Positions 3,458-53,489 of a stretch of DNA of 64,000 bases are shown in pieces. The position numbers and the translations under genes are program-made. The stretch comes from a virus. Lineage: Duplodnaviria > Heunggongvirae > Uroviricota > Caudoviricetes. The stretch spans positions 53,469 through 117,468 of the IMG/VR virus record IMGVR_UViG_3300031853_000005; one strand, written 5' to 3'. Position 1 is the first letter of the stretch. Every line of letters begins with the position of its first letter. Under the pieces are notes generated by a model that was not told the origin of the DNA, made no database searches, and worked only from the letters and a program-made list of their open reading frames with translations.

Positions 3458-3701
3458 ATCCGCTTTTTCTCGCGTATAATTGTAATATATATTTCAATAT
3501 ATAGGCGAAAAATCCAGGTCAGGGGAGTATACAGAAAAATGCATAAACGCAGCCAAAACATGAATAAATATTTTTTTACATGAATTTCCGGACGCTAAAA
3601 TGCCGATCCAGTTCAATTCTATTGCACTTTGACCGCGATTTTGATCACTTTCGGCATGAATAAGTTAGCATAATCGCAAAAAGTACAACAAAAAATAGTT
3701 G

Positions 3702-3730
3702 TTGACAAATGCACTTTGACGTGCTATCAT
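3702..3730 (+). promoter_or_regulatory. sigma-70 promoter (TTGACA-17-TATCAT) preceded by A-rich UP-like element
   Basis: aaaaaatagttgTTGACAaatgcactttgacgtgcTATCATaagg; member of the promoter family repeated through the window. Confidence 0.6.
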
Positions 3731-3736
3731 AAGGCC

Positions 3737-4190
3737 ACAGTCAAGGAACGGAGGCGAAAACTTAATCACCTGAGCGGACTTCAATGATTCTTCAAAGTGG
3801 TAGGCTATGAAACAATGCTAATTTAGTGCCTCATGGGAGGGAGGCAAGAGAAGGCAAGAAAGCAAGTGCCACAAATTCAACTGTACTTTGACAACTGAAG
3901 ATAGGGAAGGTCAAGATACCATCTTGAAACAAGCTTGTGAAAATTGCTTTAAGTGGCTTCTTAATAACCTGCAAAAGCTTTGAGGTGCTCATGCACGACA
4001 GTAAAAGCAAGTAGCAACTGCAAACACTCTAAATCATAGCTCATTCGCGATAGAGTAAAGGCAATTGGTGGAGGTGAAGACAAGCTAAACCTGAAGCAAG
4101 TCAAGAGTAGCGAGGACTCTTTCAAGAATGACCGCGAGGTGAGAAGCCTGGCGAGGGGAAACGGACTAAAGACAACTTGAAGGTTGTTTC
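3737..4190 (+). ncRNA. ORF-less purine-rich transcript/leader downstream of strong promoter (candidate regulatory RNA or long 5' UTR)
   Basis: No ORF >=60 aa on either strand from 2386 to 4191; GA-rich caag/gaag repeats. Confidence 0.3.
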
Positions 4191-6275: not shown

Positions 6276-6288
6276 GGAGGAAAAGATC

Positions 6289-6627
6289 ATGGAAAAAATC
6301 ACAAGAAAGTCTTTCACTGAAGCAATTTGCGGAAACAATACGGCATTCTTTGGAGCACCGAGGCACGAGGCTGCCTGGGTTTGTGACCGTCTGGAAAATG
6401 CCATCAAGAATACAGATTTCTACATGGTAGAACAGAGGACTGCTACACCGAAAAGCAATGCAATTCAGTTCTGTAACGGTTCAATGCTGTACTTCAATCA
6501 GAAGTGCGAAAAAACTTGTTACCATGCGGAAGTTATGGGAAAACATGTGTACATGTTTGAGGAAAAATACATTGATCGGATAAACGAAACGGAAAATTTC
6601 ATCACTTGTGTTTATTGTGTTGTATGA
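6289..6627 (+). CDS. hypothetical Cys-rich protein (112 aa)
   Basis: GAGGAGG RBS then ATG 6289 (ORF track 6241..6627). Confidence 0.55.
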   Translation: MEKITRKSFTEAICGNNTAFFGAPRHEAAWVCDRLENAIKNTDFYMVEQRTATPKSNAIQFCNGSMLYFNQKCEKTCYHAEVMGKHVYMFEEKYIDRINETENFITCVYCVV

Positions 6628-6754
6628 AGATGGAAGAAATGATTAGAAAAGAATTTGGAAAAGATGCGGAAGAAATAATTGCTTATATCAATTGCGGATA
6701 TTCTGTTGATGCTGCAATTCAAACTGTTATTGAAAAATAAGGAGGAAAAATTAA

Positions 6755-6992: not shown

Positions 6993-7037
6993 TCAACTAA
7001 AGCGGATAATTTGAAAAGATTATCCGTTTTGATGGGT
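6993..7037 (+). terminator. conserved intergenic hairpin element copy 3
   Basis: tcaactaaagcggataat..attatccgttttgatggg. Confidence 0.5.
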
Positions 7038-7077
7038 GCTATGCATCACAACTGGAAAATTTAAGGAGGAAAATTTA

Positions 7078-7638
7078 ATGCGAGACCTGATGACCTATGC
7101 AAACTTCTGTATGGAAATGTTGGATGATATCGATGTTCCGTATCGCAAAGTAGAACAGTTCACGATCAACACAAGAGCGAGAAGATGGGGACTGTGTTCC
7201 CTGCGAGATGGAAAATATTATATCCAAATCAATGTAACGCTCCTGGATGAACGCAATGGAGAAGATGGATTAATCAACACAATTCTTCATGAGCTTCTTC
7301 ACACTTGCCCTGACTGCATGAATCACGGTGCGCAATGGAAATTTTGGGCTGAGAAAGTCCGGAAGGCATATGGATATAATATCAAGAGAACAAGCGACAA
7401 CGACGAGAAAGAGGTAACAACTGGAAATCTTAACTACCATCAGAGAGAATACAAGTATCATGTGTATTGTGAGAAGTGCGGAAAACTTGTCACAAGAAGA
7501 AAGAGAAGAAGCGATCTGCTGGATAATTTGGGAAGATATGTTCATAGTGGCTGCGGTGGAAAACTTTACTACACCGATACTGAATATCCTGATTCTAAAT
7601 TTGTTGTGTATTCCATCAAAACTGCCGCGAATAACTGA
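7078..7638 (+). CDS. SprT-like zinc metallopeptidase with C-terminal zinc ribbon
   Basis: HELLH (HExxH) motif in ILHELLHTCPDCMNHGAQW; CEKCG..CGG ribbon. Confidence 0.55.
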   Translation: MRDLMTYANFCMEMLDDIDVPYRKVEQFTINTRARRWGLCSLRDGKYYIQINVTLLDERNGEDGLINTILHELLHTCPDCMNHGAQWKFWAEKVRKAYGYNIKRTSDNDEKEVTTGNLNYHQREYKYHVYCEKCGKLVTRRKRRSDLLDNLGRYVHSGCGGKLYYTDTEYPDSKFVVYSIKTAANN

Positions 7639-23827: not shown

Positions 23828-23904
23828 GCTGGTGTAGCTCAATTTGGCAGAGCGCGGCACTTGTAACGCCGATGTTGTGAGTTCGATTCTCACCACCAGC
23901 TCCA
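23828..23904 (+). tRNA. tRNA-Thr (anticodon TGT), CCA encoded
   Basis: Manual fold: acceptor GCTGGTG/CACCAGC, D arm GCTC..GAGC, anticodon loop CTTGTAA, T arm GTGAG-TTCGATT-CTCAC. Confidence 0.7.
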
Positions 23905-24290
23905 CCGGATCACATGAGGTCGTGACTTGTGTGATGCGCAGCGCCACCTTGTTCGTGCGGGGACAAGTGAGAGGGCCGCATCCCTCAAAAGGTCAGGAAC
24001 GTATCCTTAAGCATCCTGGACACCGCGCCCATTGAGGCGGGAAGAGCTGGGTAATTTCGCACCTACCCCAGACGCCAGAAAGTGACGGCAGAGCTGAATG
24101 GCAACGCAAGGTGCAACAATTCTTCGCCCGTAGAGTAGATTAACGTAGACCTGTATCGGGTGTCTGCCGGTGTGGAAACCGGTTAGTAAGCGAGTGGCGA
24201 CTGCCTACGTTCGGATGTTGCGGCTACCGAGTCCGTTAAGAGGAATCCAACCTTCGGTGGCCTTAAGCCTAAAAGAAAGAGTCGTGATCT
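23905..24290 (+). ncRNA. GC-rich (~55% GC vs ~40% background) ORF-poor structured region between tRNAs: candidate large structured ncRNA
   Basis: Numerous local hairpins (gccggtgtggaaaccggt, ggccttaagcc), no credible ORF; class undetermined. Confidence 0.3.
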
Positions 24291-24291
24291 G

Positions 24292-24489
24292 ATGGAATTT
24301 AAATTTGGCAAATGGAAGAAACTTGAAGGGCATTATATGACTCCTGGTGGAACTCCGTTGTATGTTTGCGCTCAGTGTGGTGGCTCTCAGCATCTTCATG
24401 GTGTTGAATTTTCACGGCGAAAGATGGTCTGTGATGACTGCGGCTGCGTGAATTCATATCCGTGGGAGAAGACATACGACGAAGAATAA
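24292..24489 (+). CDS. zinc-ribbon protein (65 aa)
   Basis: CAQCG..(n)..CDDCGC. Confidence 0.45.
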   Translation: MEFKFGKWKKLEGHYMTPGGTPLYVCAQCGGSQHLHGVEFSRRKMVCDDCGCVNSYPWEKTYDEE

Positions 24490-24505
24490 AACGAAAATTT
24501 AAAAT

Positions 24506-24581
24506 GGGCTGTTAGCTCAATCGGTTAGAGCCTGTGACTTATAATCGCAAGACCAGCGTTCGAATCGCTGACAGCCTACCA
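24506..24581 (+). tRNA. tRNA-Ile-like (anticodon TAT)
   Basis: Manual fold: acceptor GGGCTGT/ACAGCCT (G-U at 1:72), anticodon loop CTTATAA, T arm CAGCG-TTCGAAT-CGCTG, CCA encoded. Confidence 0.6.
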
Positions 24582-24584
24582 TAT

Positions 24585-24661
24585 GCTTCCGTGTCGCAAT
24601 CGGTAGACGGTGCTGGCTCAAACCCAGTTGTTTCACAGTTCGAATCTGTGCGGAAGCACCA
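24585..24661 (+). tRNA. class-I (short variable arm) tRNA with anticodon CAA (Leu codon UUG), A73 discriminator
   Basis: acceptor GCTTCCG/CGGAAGC, anticodon stem GCTGG/CCAGT loop CTCAAAC, 5-nt variable loop, T arm CACAG-TTCGAAT-CTGTG, CCA. Confidence 0.6.
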
Positions 24662-24782
24662 ATAGCACGTAAAGGCTGATAAAGAACGAGATACAGATAT
24701 GAAGAATATCCGAGGTCGAAAAACTACTGGCTGGATGATATCGTTCCAGCGCGTCCGAGATCGTTTAGTGGACGCATTCATA

Positions 24783-24859
24783 TATCCCAGTGGTGCAACT
24801 GGTAGACACAACAGATTTAAGCTCTGCGGTCTGAGAGTTCGAATCTCTCCTGGGATACC
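24783..24859 (+). tRNA. class-I tRNA with anticodon TAA (Leu codon UUA), G37, A73
   Basis: acceptor ATCCCAG/CTGGGAT, anticodon stem CAGA/TCTG loop TTTAAGC, 5-nt variable loop, T arm GAGAG-TTCGAAT-CTCTC, CCA. Confidence 0.6.
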
Positions 24860-25176
24860 AACCGTTCTTAGGGAAGCGCACATAGTACCGAAAGAACCGT
24901 GAGGATGGCAAAGCATGTGACTCACTGTCTCACGTAAATAAAGATGAGAATAATGCTAACTCTGGCACATTTTCCCACTTTACACGCTTATCTGAATTGA
25001 GAGATTAGGGGCAAAAAGTGGCGCTGGGTAGGAGGTTGAGTGCGCACCGTCCTACCCATGCGAGAAAGTAAAAATCATGGGGCGTTAGTGTAAAGAACAC
25101 ACGCAGAAAGCAAGGGCTGCGAAATGTGGGCGCGATACCTACACGCTCCACCAAATAAAATATAGGATTAATTACA
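24860..25176 (+). ncRNA. ORF-free structured spacer (8-bp GGGTAGGA/TCCTACCC hairpin and others) downstream of tRNA cluster
   Basis: No ORF; local GC-rich hairpins. Confidence 0.2.
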
Positions 25177-29973: not shown

Positions 29974-30099
29974 AATGGCAAACAGAGCGAAAGGCTGGAA
30001 TCTGAAGAACACATATGTTCAGAAGATGGAGAACAAGCAGAAGAAGCGTGACCGCAAGGAACGTATCAAAGAGTATGAAAAGATGAAGAAACGCGCATG
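29974..30099 (+). CDS. small basic protein (41 aa)
   Basis: GGAGAAGAGG RBS + ATG; K/R-rich. Confidence 0.3.
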
Positions 30100-30140
30100 A
30101 GATTGATACATATGGCAACAATAGAAGGTGGTGATGATAG

Positions 30141-32059
30141 GTGAAACATTATGGTGATATCACTAAACTGAAAGGCAGTGAACTTCCAGTTGTAGATTGT
30201 ATTACTGGTGGTTCACCTTGTTAGTCAGGATCTTTCTGTAGCTGGGAATCGCGCTGGTCTTGCTGGTGAACGATCTGGCTTGTTCATGGAACAGATTCGA
30301 ATTGTTAGGGAGATGAGAGAACATGATAGAGAACAAGGAAGAACTGGATCTGATGTCAGACCGCGATTCATGGTCTGGGAGAACGTCAAAGGCTGCTTCA
30401 ACAGCAACAAAGGAAAAGACTTCCAGGCAGTCCTCACGGAAATCTTCCGTATCGCAGTCCCGGATGCCCCTGATGTGCCTATGCCTGATTCGGGAAAATG
30501 GCCCTACTCCGGACTCCTACTCGATGAGGTGGGGGGGGGTATCAGTTGCCTGGAGGCTACACGACGCTCAATACTGGGGTGTACCCCAGCGTCGTGAGAG
30601 AGTCGCGATTGTCGCAGATTTTGGAGGATTGTCCGCAGGAGAAATACTATTTGAGTCCGAAAGCCTGCAAGGGAATCCTAACGAGAGCGGAGAGGCGCGG
30701 CAAGGAACTTCCACCGGAGCTGAAAGCAGCACTGATTGCGCAGTCAGCGTAAACGAAGACCGTGTTATTTCAAGTACAGTGGGGGGGTATATGCAAGCTT
30801 CCGAGAACCAGGTTGCAACTCTGATGGCAAGGGATTTCAAAGATCCCCAGATCATCATGAGAGCCTGATTGAAGATGCGGATAAGAATGGGTCGCAAGAG
30901 AAAACATTCTGTCTGGAAGGTAATGGTCAGAGACCATCACACCGAGGCGATGGATACATAGAATCAGACATCATGTACACGTTGAATAGTATTGAGCAAC
31001 ACGCGGTTTATGCTTTTGATTCTCTTTCCAGTAACAGCATGAAGTCCAAGAATCCACATAGCGGATGCAGAAAAGTTGAAGTGTCGAAAACACTTGATTG
31101 TTTTGATCCGAATCCATCAAAGAACCAGGGCGGTATTGCGGTTGTTGAAAGATGCGCCGGGTTCAAAGCTGGACAAAGCATGGCTGGAAGTCTTGGATAC
31201 GAAGATGAAATAAGTCCTACGCTTTCTGCAATGCCAAGTGGATTAGAGCCAACGGTGGTCATTTATGGAAATGAATAGGTTAATCTACGATGCCAGGGGG
31301 AATGGTGGGGGTATGATTAGCCCTACGATTACTGGTGATCATCAGGATAGGATCACAGATTATACTGCAATCATTGTAGAGTGTTATGCCAAACCTGGAT
31401 TTGATCGTTATGTGAAACAGGATATTTCAGATACGATCAGAGCATCCGGTGGAGATGTAGGGGGGGGCAGCGAAATGCTGATCGTTACACATGAGAGTGT
31501 ATGACGGTTGTCGGAGACACAATTACGAGTGTCTGGGTGAAGTATGTTGCACCGTACAGGCGTTCTGGGGTACAGGTGGGGGCAACATGCCGATAGTTCT
31601 GGAAGAAAAATCCATAATAAAAGCATCGTTTGATGATGATATTAACGATAAGAATTTGTGTGTGAATGGAAAGAAGGTGGTCGAATGAATGGTGTTTTGT
31701 CTGTAAGAAGACTTACACCTCTTTGACTTGAGTGCGAAAGACTTCAGGGAATGCCTGACGGTTGGACGGACATTGGTGATTGGGTAGACGAAAAAGGCAA
31801 GAAGCACAAAGCAGCGGACAGCCCACGTTATAAAGCCCTCGGAAACGGAATCGCATTGCCTTTTTGGGAATGGCTTCTCGGAAGAATTTCTGCTCAGTAT
31901 GACAGACCGGCTACACTTGGCAGCTTGTTTGATGGTATCGCAAGTTTTCCCCTGGCATGGTCAAAGTTCAACGGCAAAGAGAATTGTCTGTGGAGTTCTG
32001 AAATCGAACAGTTTCCGATTGCTGTAGCAAAGAAACATTTTCCAGATACGGAGGAATAA
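30141..32059 (+). pseudogene. C5-cytosine DNA methyltransferase, circularly permuted (IV-VI-VIII-TRD-IX-X then I) and disrupted by frameshifts and in-frame stops
   Basis: Across three frames: GDITKL..ITGGSPC (motif IV), QDLSVAGNRAGLAGERSGLF, MVWENVKG (VI), GVPQRRERVAIVADFGG (VIII), EKYYLSPK, ATLMARDFKDPQII, ISPTLSA, RRLTPL*LECERLQGMPDGWT, RYKALGNGIALPF (X), then LFDGIASFPLAW..ENCLWSSEIEQFPIAVAKKHFPD (motif I region) immediately before the stop. Confidence 0.75.
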
Positions 32060-32061
32060 CA

Positions 32062-32283
32062 ATGTTATGCAGTCGTTGCGGAGAAGAAATGCATCACTTT
32101 ATCGGAGCAGATGGAAAACGGTTAACTGAATTTCTGCGTTGTCCGAAGTGCTGGCTTGAAACAAAGCGGATGCGCTTTCATTTTGAGCCAGAAAGTACAA
32201 TAGAAAATAACCATAAAAAGGATGTGAAGAAAGTTGCTGGTAAACGGCGAAAGAGCACTGGCGTATGTCGTAAGCATCGATGA
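32062..32283 (+). CDS. zinc-ribbon protein (73 aa)
   Basis: CSRCG..(n)..CPKC. Confidence 0.45.
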   Translation: MLCSRCGEEMHHFIGADGKRLTEFLRCPKCWLETKRMRFHFEPESTIENNHKKDVKKVAGKRRKSTGVCRKHR

Positions 32284-53157: not shown

Positions 53158-53489
53158 AAGGGAAGTGCGCTGTCTGCGGTAAGGAAGGAGAAGTCTTCGT
53201 AGCTTGTTCAGCATGCGGAGCAATCTCCTTCGCGTACTGCGAGGATTGTTTGAATACAGGAGCAGAACCTTATGGTGCTCTTGTTGAATATATCTCATGT
53301 GCTGGCGATTCTCCGGAAGACATCAATGACACATATCTCAAAATCATTCGCGACACACTGTCCAGGCTGAATATTACAGAAGAACAGTTCTGGAAAGATG
53401 TCAAACAGTCAATCATTGATGAGAATGAATATTGGAAGGAACTTGCCGCACAAAATGATTCTAAAACAACGGAAGGTTTGCCGTTTTAA
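53154..53489 (+). CDS. zinc-finger protein (111 aa)
   Basis: CAVCG..CSACG..C..C. Confidence 0.5.
   Translation: MKGKCAVCGKEGEVFVACSACGAISFAYCEDCLNTGAEPYGALVEYISCAGDSPEDINDTYLKIIRDTLSRLNITEEQFWKDVKQSIIDENEYWKELAAQNDSKTTEGLPF

Follow-up and report, generated by a model that had tools for sequence, protein, structure and literature searches.

The DNA considered here is a stretch of 64,000 nucleotides (the window) from a virus of the Caudoviricetes (IMG/VR record IMGVR_UViG_3300031853_000005, positions 53,469 to 117,468), and the gene of interest, at window positions 30141-32059 on the plus strand, codes for a cytosine-5 (C5) DNA methyltransferase split over several reading frames. Between the codons for the catalytic Cys and the following Gln of motif IV, this gene carries a four-base insertion, TAGT (site 1). 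Our leading, still tentative, explanation is that the sequence formed there, TGT-TAG-N, is a programmed +1 ribosomal frameshift signal of phage cytosine methyltransferases, whose action would depend on the stop codon. The insertion recurs, is constrained, separates two frames that are both under selection, spreads by recombination and, in part, occurs in alleles that lack a start codon for the second frame; from these observations we infer the ribosomal nature of the event, as well as its direction, product and efficiency.

The gene matches the PF00145 profile in its N-terminal part (E = 1.7e-25) and in its C-terminal part (E = 2.9e-07), and its conceptual translation holds motifs IV (GGSPC|QDLS), VI (WENV), VIII (QRRERV), IX (RRLTPL|ECERLQG) and X (LGNGIALP). 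Relatives, designated below by L numbers, were collected by protein search and DNA patterns. A near-identity DNA search in 50,697 phage records gave no match, and an exact-protein look-up of a neighbouring gene returned one 2.5-kb contig and nothing else. Of the relatives collected, the nearest is L260 (116-kb contig OCVV011351979.1), with about 97% identity across the region of the target-recognition domains (TRDs). Around site 1 the gene, which begins with a short leader open reading frame (ORF), is built as follows:

30125-30134, plus strand: Shine-Dalgarno-like (SD-like) sequence AAGGTGGTGA, 6 nt ahead of the leader start codon
30141-30221, plus strand: leader ORF of 27 codons in frame 0, V-KHYGDITKLKGSELPVVDCITGGSPC, with motif III and the N-terminal half of motif IV; GTG start at 30141, last codon that of the catalytic Cys (TGT)
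30222-30225, plus strand: site 1, four inserted bases, TAGT, the first three being a stop codon; UGU-UAG-U is here the proposed site of +1 recoding
30226-30530, plus strand: body part 1, frame 1, QDLSVAG..., with motifs V-VI (WENV), to ...LLLDEV
30540-30868, plus strand: body part 2, frame 2, comprising motif VIII (QRRERV), a linker that is not conserved and TRD-like unit 1 (ATLMARDFKDPQIIM); TGA 30866-30868 (J1) at the end

In the window, site 1 reads GGT GGT TCA CCT TGT [TAGT] CAG GAT CTT TCT, that is, a TAG and a shift of one base between the catalytic Cys and the Gln. A preliminary description of this DNA had pointed to such a stop-bearing insert of 4 nt with a +1 shift in motif IV, and direct reading of the sequence places it, as TAGT, at 30222-30225. 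Comparison with an orthologue defines the exact insert both here and at a second place near the C-terminus (site 2, below): L260, from which both stop insertions are absent, reads AGT CCT TGC CAG GAT and CTG ACC CCA ACG GAG TGC, giving inserts of 4 nt and 6 nt, respectively. The insertion at site 1 is found well beyond the window. L001 (MT835520), a relative with 45% protein identity, carries GGT GGT TCA CCT TGT TAGC CAG GAT. A pattern scan of IMG/VR for TGY-TAG-Y returned 76 contigs, and a scan with a free 4-nt slot gave TAGA in 81, TAGC in 70 and TAGT in 5, together with one TTGC lineage and one unrelated match. In all, TGT-TAG-N-CAR-GAY is present in at least 157 IMG/VR contigs. The same insert at the same codon boundary in >150 independent contigs is far beyond chance, and the preliminary description was right to regard the insertions as precise, non-random and unlike ordinary decay. 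With TAA or TGA in the place of TAG, the IMG/VR scan found five matches, every one of them an unrelated sequence. TAGN is also present in 7 of 76 metagenome relatives (a sample fetched with an insert-free query) and in prophage-like genes of eight bacterial genomes (Oscillospiraceae, Butyrivibrio, Dysosmobacter and other Clostridia), among them that of the cultured isolate Oscillibacter sp. 1-3 (prophage in NZ_KE159710). Genes with the motifs in canonical, non-permuted order carry it as well (about 75 codons upstream, context TTC GGT AGC CCC TGT TAG C).

The insert is under strong constraint. Among 76 distinct contexts of 64 nt, its T, A and G show 0 variants each amid neighbouring synonymous sites that vary in 18-49, and the stop at the frame junction is TAG in all 76, without TAA or TGA variants. 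The fourth base is A in 37, C in 36, T in 5 and G in 0 of the distinct contexts. Upstream, the codons before TAG are GGT GGT TCA CCT TGT, each in 86-99 of the 101 TAGN alleles; insert-free relatives have GGA/GGC, AGC/TCG/AGT and CCG/CCA at those codons, with TGT about as frequent as TGC, and the closest insert-free relatives of the window have TGC for the Cys. The leader starts with GTG in 75 of 79 TAGN alleles and an SD-like motif precedes it in the same proportion (75/79). The only non-TAG variant is that of L113 and L120 (IMGVR_UViG_3300006139_000151 and 3300006141_000015), which read TGT TTGC CAA, with a Leu codon for TAG and the frameshift kept; this is possibly a dead copy and a natural control.

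Selection has been found to act on both sides of site 1. In most TAGN loci this site is the sole break, and a single alignment covers residues 1-27 in one frame and, from residue 28 to about 590, the following frame. In two clades composed entirely of TAGN genes (31 and 51 distinct sequences), diversity in the leader peaks at codon position 3 of frame 0 and, from the Gln codon on, at position 3 of the +1 frame, the T, A and G columns being invariant and the fourth base variable. The body, that is, the downstream ORF, has a median pairwise dN/dS of 0.27 among TAGN genes (87 pairs). As far as can be read from these substitution patterns, leader and +1 body are both translated and under purifying selection, as one protein family. 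Since selection follows frame 0 before the TAG and the +1 frame after it, the +1 frame would be entered within a few codons of the stop. Dual coding was considered as the source of the upstream codon bias and rejected, because the +1-frame residues ahead of the Gln codon vary non-conservatively.

Under the proposed +1 frameshift, ribosomes would initiate at the strong ribosome-binding site of the leader and arrive with UGU in the P site and UAG in the A site. Some of them would shift +1 rather than terminate, decode AGN (Ser/Arg) and then CAR GAY, and so produce ...GGSPC-(S/R)-QDLS... and the remaining enzyme; the majority would terminate, which probably keeps the output of methyltransferase low or tied to the efficiency of UAG termination. 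This reading is favoured because the TAG specificity, the preference for TGT over TGC and the avoidance of G at the fourth base fit a 'shifty stop' and not a restart. UGU pairs weakly in the P site, since tRNA-Cys(GCA) decodes it through a G·U wobble; RF1 alone recognises UAG, and A or C following the stop is a weak termination context in E. coli. A close parallel is prfB (CUU UGA C), where an in-frame stop at the shift site also competes with +1 frameshifting, a weak-termination base also follows the stop, and a short upstream ORF and a long +1 ORF likewise give one protein. On the other hand, the shift codon is here UGU, without +1 re-pairing, the stop is always UAG (RF1) and not UGA, the SD-like element lies 6 nt upstream instead of 3 and is lacking in some alleles, and the product, a methyltransferase, has no obvious tie to termination. 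Another parallel is the Ty3 or 'hungry codon' site (GCG AGU U), for which out-of-frame entry of the aminoacyl-tRNA has been proposed while the zero-frame A site is slow, as here. However, Ty3 is eukaryotic and its slow codon is a sense codon, whereas at site 1 it is a stop; AGU is the slow zero-frame codon in Ty3, and at site 1 AGY/AGA is the incoming +1 codon. No counterpart of the Ty3-type shift in bacterial or phage methyltransferases is documented in the part of the 2016 recoding review that was available (PMC5009743), and the literature searched, which included that part of the review, contains no description of a frameshift in a phage cytosine methyltransferase.

The window copy is more heavily interrupted than most TAGN genes. 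In addition to the breaks in the preliminary description there are five more, namely a poly-G of 9 and the stops TGA 30866, TAG 31276, TGA 31502 and TGA 31686, which delimit the following elements:

30531-30539, plus strand: poly-G of 9, disrupting both the methyltransferase frame and the overlapping ORF-X (below); 8 G would preserve the frame, and 8 G are present in L260, L290 and L291
30869-31278, plus strand: piece b, frame 1, three TRD-like units, with TAG 31276-31278 (J2) at the end; no usable upstream start codon
31265-31504, plus strand: piece c, frame 2, MEMN-RLIYDARGNGGG... and a further TRD unit; poly-G of 8 at 31460-31467, TGA 31502-31504 (J3) at the end
31491-31688, plus strand: piece d, frame 0, TRD-like unit ...CCTVQAFWGTGGGNMPIVLEE..., with TGA 31686-31688 (J4) at the end; the L260 sequence is different and shorter
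31685-32059, plus strand: piece e, frame 2, ATG overlapping the prior stop (ATGA) with AAGGTGG ahead; motifs IX (with an in-frame TGA), X (GNGIALP) and I-II, ending at TAA 32057-32059

J1 (30866), J2 (31276) and J3 (31502) are common to the window and L260. Because substitutions between the two are mostly synonymous in each piece's own frame, the out-of-frame pieces are, on this comparison, translated, and the gene is not a decaying pseudogene. Thus, piece b (30869-31275, frame 1) has 13 synonymous changes to 1 non-synonymous, and 1:13 in each of the other frames; TRD1, in frame 2, has 7:1, the other frames giving 1:7 and 0:8; body part 1, in frame 1, has 10 synonymous and 7 non-synonymous changes, with 3:14 in each of the other frames. 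Pieces c, d and e start at an ATG overlapping or abutting the previous stop, two of them behind an SD of GGTGG type. One TRD-like unit, named here after its sequence DARGNG, opens a new frame exactly at a stop (T|AGG in the window and L260, T|AAA in L291, an ATGA overlap in L290), and this layout favours stop-start coupling; the units that precede it in the window and L260 differ from those in L291. Piece b has, by reading of the sequence, no frame-1 start codon between 30736 and 30869, so that it would need a -1 or +2 event near GCC-TGA. A hop between matched codons fits at J1 (GCC...GCG, 14 nt) and does not fit at J2 and J3. TRD-like units in differing frames are also seen elsewhere in the clade of the window, with changes at stops and often at ATGA (L290 at 4706 and 4876; L291 at 902, 1041, 1129 and 1440). 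Either further recoding or stop-start coupling takes place at the extra breaks of the window gene, or little full-length enzyme is made from this copy, which may be in an OFF state regardless of the stops.

The second insertion has the following position:

31721-31729, plus strand: site 2, CTT TGA CTT, an in-frame TGA (31724-31726) between two Leu codons within RRLTP-x-EC

The context of site 2 is AGA AGA CTT ACA CCT CTT TGA CTT GAG TGC (R R L T P L * L E C), in agreement with the 6-nt in-frame insertion carrying TGA that had been described near the C-terminus; L260 lacks those 6 nt. As at site 1, the difference from L260 is a local patch (CTT ACA CCT CTT TGA CTT in the window, CTG ACC CCA ACG in L260). 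A scan for R-R-L-T-P-x-TGA-x-E-C gave 13 matches with two more genuine cases, L175 (CTT TGA CTT GAG TGC) and L178 (CTC TGA CTT GAA TGT), in which the surrounding synonymous codons differ; among 274 instances of motif IX, from all loci, only those of the window, L175 and L178 are interrupted. L178 carries both sites, like the window, with TAGA at site 1. Codons matched for take-off and landing flank the stop at site 2 in all three sequences and are missing at site 1 (TGT ... AGN). A Leu-to-Leu hop of +6 over the TGA would restore the exact consensus RRLTPLEC; the alternative at this site would be UGA readthrough, and the predicted peptides are RRLTPLECER for the hop and RRLTPLWLECER for readthrough. 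In this respect site 2 resembles bypassing in T4 gene 60 and other short hops, since a stop also follows the take-off codon and the Leu codons flanking it are CUY...CUU; the differences are a gap of only 6 nt, a take-off stem-loop that is not seen and, for site 1, a landing codon that does not match. CTT TGA C is literally the shift heptamer of prfB, but the frame downstream is 0 and not +1, so a shift of the prfB type would be unproductive, leaving the frame and ending after about 20 codons. Site 2 is possibly a second, much rarer allele of the same kind as site 1, a lead provided by three sequences.

Several observations weigh against +1 frameshifting at site 1. The tRNA-Cys cannot re-pair at +1 (from UGU to GUU, sequence reasoning allows at best one wobble pair with the anticodon GCA), in contrast with the CUU-U slip of prfB, and for this reason a mechanism of Ty3 type, with out-of-frame entry in the A site, would be required. 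The predicted product has an extra Ser/Arg beside the catalytic Cys, although motif IV is as a rule unbroken. In prfB the stimulatory SD acts at 3 nt, and here the GGTGGT found in most alleles is 6 nt before the TGT and is missing in L340-343, L075 and L026; besides, it yields a +1-frame GTG in 51 of 64 contexts, which is compatible with a restart. RNAalifold, applied to 21 diverse sites in search of a stimulatory RNA structure, gave a trivial 4-bp helix and no covariation. The window copy would require about seven events for a full-length product, and site 2 is backed by three sequences only. The distribution of the allele adds to these points. When the catalytic domains are placed on a neighbour-joining tree, genes with TAGN interleave with insert-free ones, and in at least six independent close pairs the sequences are nearly identical downstream of site 1 and differ in a patch that covers the insert and 25 to >50 nt upstream (between the window and L260 the patch is about 45 nt, TGTATT...TCA...TGT TAGT...GTAGCT versus GTAGTA...AGT...TGC...GTGGCC). 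Judged from the interleaved tree and these local patches, TAGN moves between genes by recombination along with its upstream context. Such joint movement is expected if the context belongs to the signal, but a selfish or OFF cassette could behave alike. Moreover, a second frame break is found in 47 of 105 TAGN genes and in 30 of 144 insert-free ones.

Another explanation is that the enzyme is split by stop-start coupling, with termination at the TAG and restart at the +1-frame GTG 14 nt upstream; the products would be a peptide of 27 residues, with the catalytic Cys as its last, and a separate body M-VHLV-S/R-QDLS..., assembled non-covalently, and with the later junctions alike (ATGA 31685, ATG 31265, ATG 31491) the methyltransferase would be made in pieces. 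The GTG in question, at -6 codons, is created by a GGT codon present in 87 of 101 TAGN genes and in 2 of 121 insert-free genes, and restarts are also suggested by the ATGs at which pieces c, d and e begin and by the new frame that the DARGNG unit opens with a nearby ATG in the window, L260, L290 and L291. Natural two-chain C5 methyltransferases are known, such as M.AquI (PMC3404938) and M.EcoHK31I (PMC2836561). Nevertheless, 6 of the 64 contexts, those of L340 and L341 (canonical order) among them, lack any ATG, GTG or TTG along the +1 frame from the nearest stop up to the Gln codon and, by reading of the sequence, any CTG, ATT, ATC or ATA as well. A restart needs neither TAG over TAA or TGA, nor TGT over TGC, nor a bias at the fourth base; the +1-frame residues ahead of the Gln codon are not conserved; known natural and engineered C5 splits fall in the variable region and not within motif IV, and piece b is without a frame-1 start codon between 30736 and 30869. 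A split enzyme is considered unlikely, although it and the selfish or OFF allele discussed below are the chief rivals of the frameshift. Also doubtful is a broader reading, in which the internal stops of these phage methyltransferase genes would be signals for frame changes and not terminators, and the window gene would be read through about six stop-associated events: UGU-UAG-U, +1; GCC-UGA-U, -1 or +2; GAA-UAG-G, +1; GUA-UGA-C, +1; GAA-UGA-A, -1 or +2; and CUU-UGA-CUU, in frame. Such decoding, to which we give little credence, may depend on weakened termination, caused by a factor of the phage, or on the reading of UAGN as four bases, and it would be the counterpart in a bacterial virus of the obligatory frameshifting at stops of Euplotes or of the bypass elements of yeast mitochondria.

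A non-functional or selfish allele appears improbable. In this explanation, TAGN and its upstream codons would form either an OFF cassette or a variant that a homing nuclease does not cut, spread among phage methyltransferase genes by gene conversion, and the recipient genes would look intact only because conversion is recent or reversible. The interleaved tree, the close pairs that differ mainly by a patch at and upstream of site 1, the excess of extra breaks in TAGN genes, the many further breaks of the window copy and the HNH endonuclease ORFs inside related genes are all in line with it. However, an OFF insert gives no reason for invariant T, A and G in 76 contexts amid varying neighbours, the position-3 pattern and a dN/dS of about 0.27 hold in the all-TAGN clades, and synonymous changes alone would confer resistance to a nuclease without breaking the frame. 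The same facts tell against targeted inactivation and the footprint of an excised mobile element, causes put forward in the preliminary description, which leave unexplained the T-A-G invariance, the lack of any TAA or TGA version, the fourth-base and upstream-codon bias and the position-3 pattern in frame 0 and then in +1. Its further suggestion of a toxic gene silenced on cloning or propagation does not agree with the occurrence of site 1 in many independent metagenome assemblies and in Oscillibacter sp. 1-3, which also exclude a sequencing error at this site. Very improbable is four-base reading, in which a tRNA whose anticodon loop is enlarged would decode UAGN, or peptidyl-tRNA-Cys would bypass 4 nt, to give PCQD exactly or with one extra residue. 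An invariant TAG with a free fourth base is in its favour, and the matched Leu codons at site 2 are those that hops require, but the landing triplet AGA/AGC/AGU is a poor match to UGU, with AGA the commonest, the allele resides in prophages of ordinary Clostridia genomes, and no suppressor or odd-anticodon tRNA was found, either in the window or in the surroundings (about 7 kb) of 60 related loci. Finally, seven interruptions within 1.9 kb, one of them at a homopolymer, would by themselves suggest ordinary pseudogene decay or an error of sequencing or assembly. This has the least to recommend it and is already largely refuted: other large genes of the window are intact, J1-J3 are common to the independent assembly L260, the pieces evolve at 13:1 and 7:1 synonymous to non-synonymous, and site 1 is identical in >150 contigs; only the length of the poly-G (9 versus 8) could still be an error.

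An adjacent homing endonuclease with a resistant target allele was also considered as the agent of spread and rejected, no nuclease consistently adjoining TAGN genes; when the ORFs in the 1.7 kb upstream of each locus were clustered, for 104 loci with TAGN and 119 without the insert, no nuclease family proved specific to TAGN. HNH endonuclease ORFs do lie inside the TRD region of some relatives, in another frame. They are found in L175 (reverse strand, about 3470-4100 of the reversed locus), where the methyltransferase frame stays open for about 200 codons across the insertion, and in L178 (about 6280-6640 and 7000-7560).

A changed genetic code does not explain the internal stops. The 43 long plus-strand ORFs of the window end in TAA (25), TGA (15) and TAG (3), and the DNA polymerase (1033 aa), NrdD, DnaB and RNA ligase are intact under code 11; outside the methyltransferase gene, the window has the appearance of a large phage that uses the standard code. 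Reassignment of stop codons (codes 4 and 15) was thus rejected: all three stops terminate ORFs, large genes are intact, neither suppressor nor quadruplet tRNA was found in the window or around the related loci, and site 1 is out of frame. The preliminary description had reserved the case that orthologues translate the same codons as sense; they do appear to do so, by frameshift recoding and not by another code, and internal TAG or TGA, which it proposed to look for in other conserved phage genes, are not a feature of the other large genes of the window. The window has four tRNA genes at 23828-24860 (Thr-TGT, Ile-TAT, Leu-CAA and Leu-TAA). In 130-kb phages with TAGC, an array of 6-8 tRNAs lies directly upstream of the methyltransferase gene, some of them overlong (Gln, 88-90 nt).

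A different layer of coding in the same gene is an overlapping ORF in the +1 frame:

30323-30752, plus strand: ORF-X, opening at ATG 30323 (frame 2), passing into frame 0 beyond the poly-G and closing at TAA 30750-30752; C-terminal domain LSQILEDCPQEKYYLSPKACKGILTRAERRGKELPPELKAAL from about 30609

The conserved peptide LSQILEDCPQEKYYLSPKACKGILTRAERRGKELPPELKAAL lies in frame 0 (30609-30749) although frame 2 is open at 30323-30868. The preliminary description had placed two frame changes near 30620-30640 and 30745-30752; the conserved frame does change there, but the main frame, frame 2, stays open (30323-30868), and the two positions are the edges of the ORF-X domain. In 75 L003-like sequences the phase of substitutions moves to the +1 frame for codons about 158-197 and then back, and the same switch is seen in the TAGN clades; this island is under selection even where the main ORF is uninterrupted, throughout the family. 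Over 186 distinct loci, the open +1 frame extends ahead of the island by 97 codons (median) and starts with ATG in 158, GTG in 19 and TTG in 9, with an SD-like motif in 173 (AAGGAG, which encodes the K-E of IKEMRE); this frame has about 1 stop per 100 codons, versus 4.8 in the +2 frame. The pattern of the C-terminal domain is LSQILE..P.KYYLS.KAC.GIL.RA.RRGK.LP..L..AL. ORF-X is also present in L002, L003, L164 and L165, and the island occurs within genes annotated as methyltransferases in Streptococcus phage Javan422 and Enterobacter phage CobraSix, so that it is found in phages of Clostridia, Streptococcus and Enterobacter. Searches against Pfam, NCBIfam and PDB sequences gave no match, and there was only a weak one to PHROG 16143. 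The second frame break mentioned above is located 175-215 codons past the Gln of motif IV, is common family-wide, and usually leaves the gene in the ORF-X frame. In L001-like genes this frame runs on as far as the gene's end, taking in the TRDs and motifs IX-X-I, and the outcome is a pair of overlapping ORFs that resemble the two-chain enzyme M.AquI. In M.EcoHK31I the beta chain is encoded in another frame within the alpha gene (PMC2836561), and this in-gene second-frame ORF resembles ORF-X, which has its own SD and ATG. Unlike in M.EcoHK31I and M.AquI, conservation in ORF-X falls on the stretch usually found after motif VIII (LSQILE...KYYLS...) and not on motif IX.

The poly-G tracts appear to be another layer, apart from the TAG signal. 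Their lengths are 9 (30531-30539) and 8 (31460-31467) in the window and 8 and 7 in L260, a difference of one G that changes the reading frame from one close relative to the other, as is the case for phase-variable genes. Among L001-like loci the poly-G tract at IRGGC (about 3160-3200 in L001) has 7 or 8-9 G, and a poly-G break is also found in the cultured Faecalibacterium phage Lelie (L344, about 1800). The extra G at 30531-30539, in a hypermutable tract, resembles homopolymer slippage, and the tracts look like phase variation of a phage methyltransferase. In the methyltransferases of phasevarions, differences in poly-G length likewise switch the frame; those, however, are type III mod genes, and here the enzymes are C5 methyltransferases of phages and prophages.

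The order of motifs in the window enzyme is also unusual. The gene runs from motif III (KHYGDITKL) through IV, VI, VIII, about seven TRD-like units, IX and X to motifs I-II (LGSLFDGIASFP...FPDTEE), so that motif I is C-terminal, after motif X (motif I-II stretch 31915-32056, motif I at about 31921-31956), and no FxGxG loop for AdoMet binding is found at the N-terminus. The window motif I reads G-I-A-S and not GxGG, the relatives having GIGGFP. Joining the 3' end of the gene to its start yields a contiguous alignment with residues 16-112 of M.HhaI, and on this ground the enzyme is, by its sequence, a circularly permuted, multi-TRD methyltransferase in which the fold is permuted and not lost. 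L003 (MT836051; 2414-4189) is an uninterrupted homologue of 591 aa with the same permutation, and L002 (Ruminococcus phage NatCom_38182) is a homologue in canonical order. Natural permutants of the M.BssHII type also have motif X before motif I, but they are opened in the variable region, whereas the window family is opened between motifs II and III. According to a 2018 survey, every natural permuted C5 methyltransferase then known opened in the variable region (PMC5944983), and the order III-X, I-II may be a topology unreported for natural C5 enzymes. The gene is flanked by an ORF of 41 residues, very basic (MANRAKGWNLKNTYVQKMENKQKKRDRKERIKEYEKMKKRA), at 29975-30100, and by a Cys-rich ORF of 73 residues, resembling a zinc ribbon, at 32062-32283.

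If TGT-TAG-N is indeed a programmed +1 frameshift signal, it would add an abundant new family to the very short list of such events in bacteria and phages, with a shift codon that does not re-pair and a strict dependence on UAG. Many methyltransferases of gut and rumen phages that are annotated as hypothetical, split or pseudogenes would then be expressed. Annotation pipelines overlook three further layers of the same genes: the overlapping +1-frame ORF, the poly-G switches and a permutation topology that may be unreported. For the phages themselves, the output of methyltransferase, and hence protection from host restriction, could depend on the efficiency of termination.

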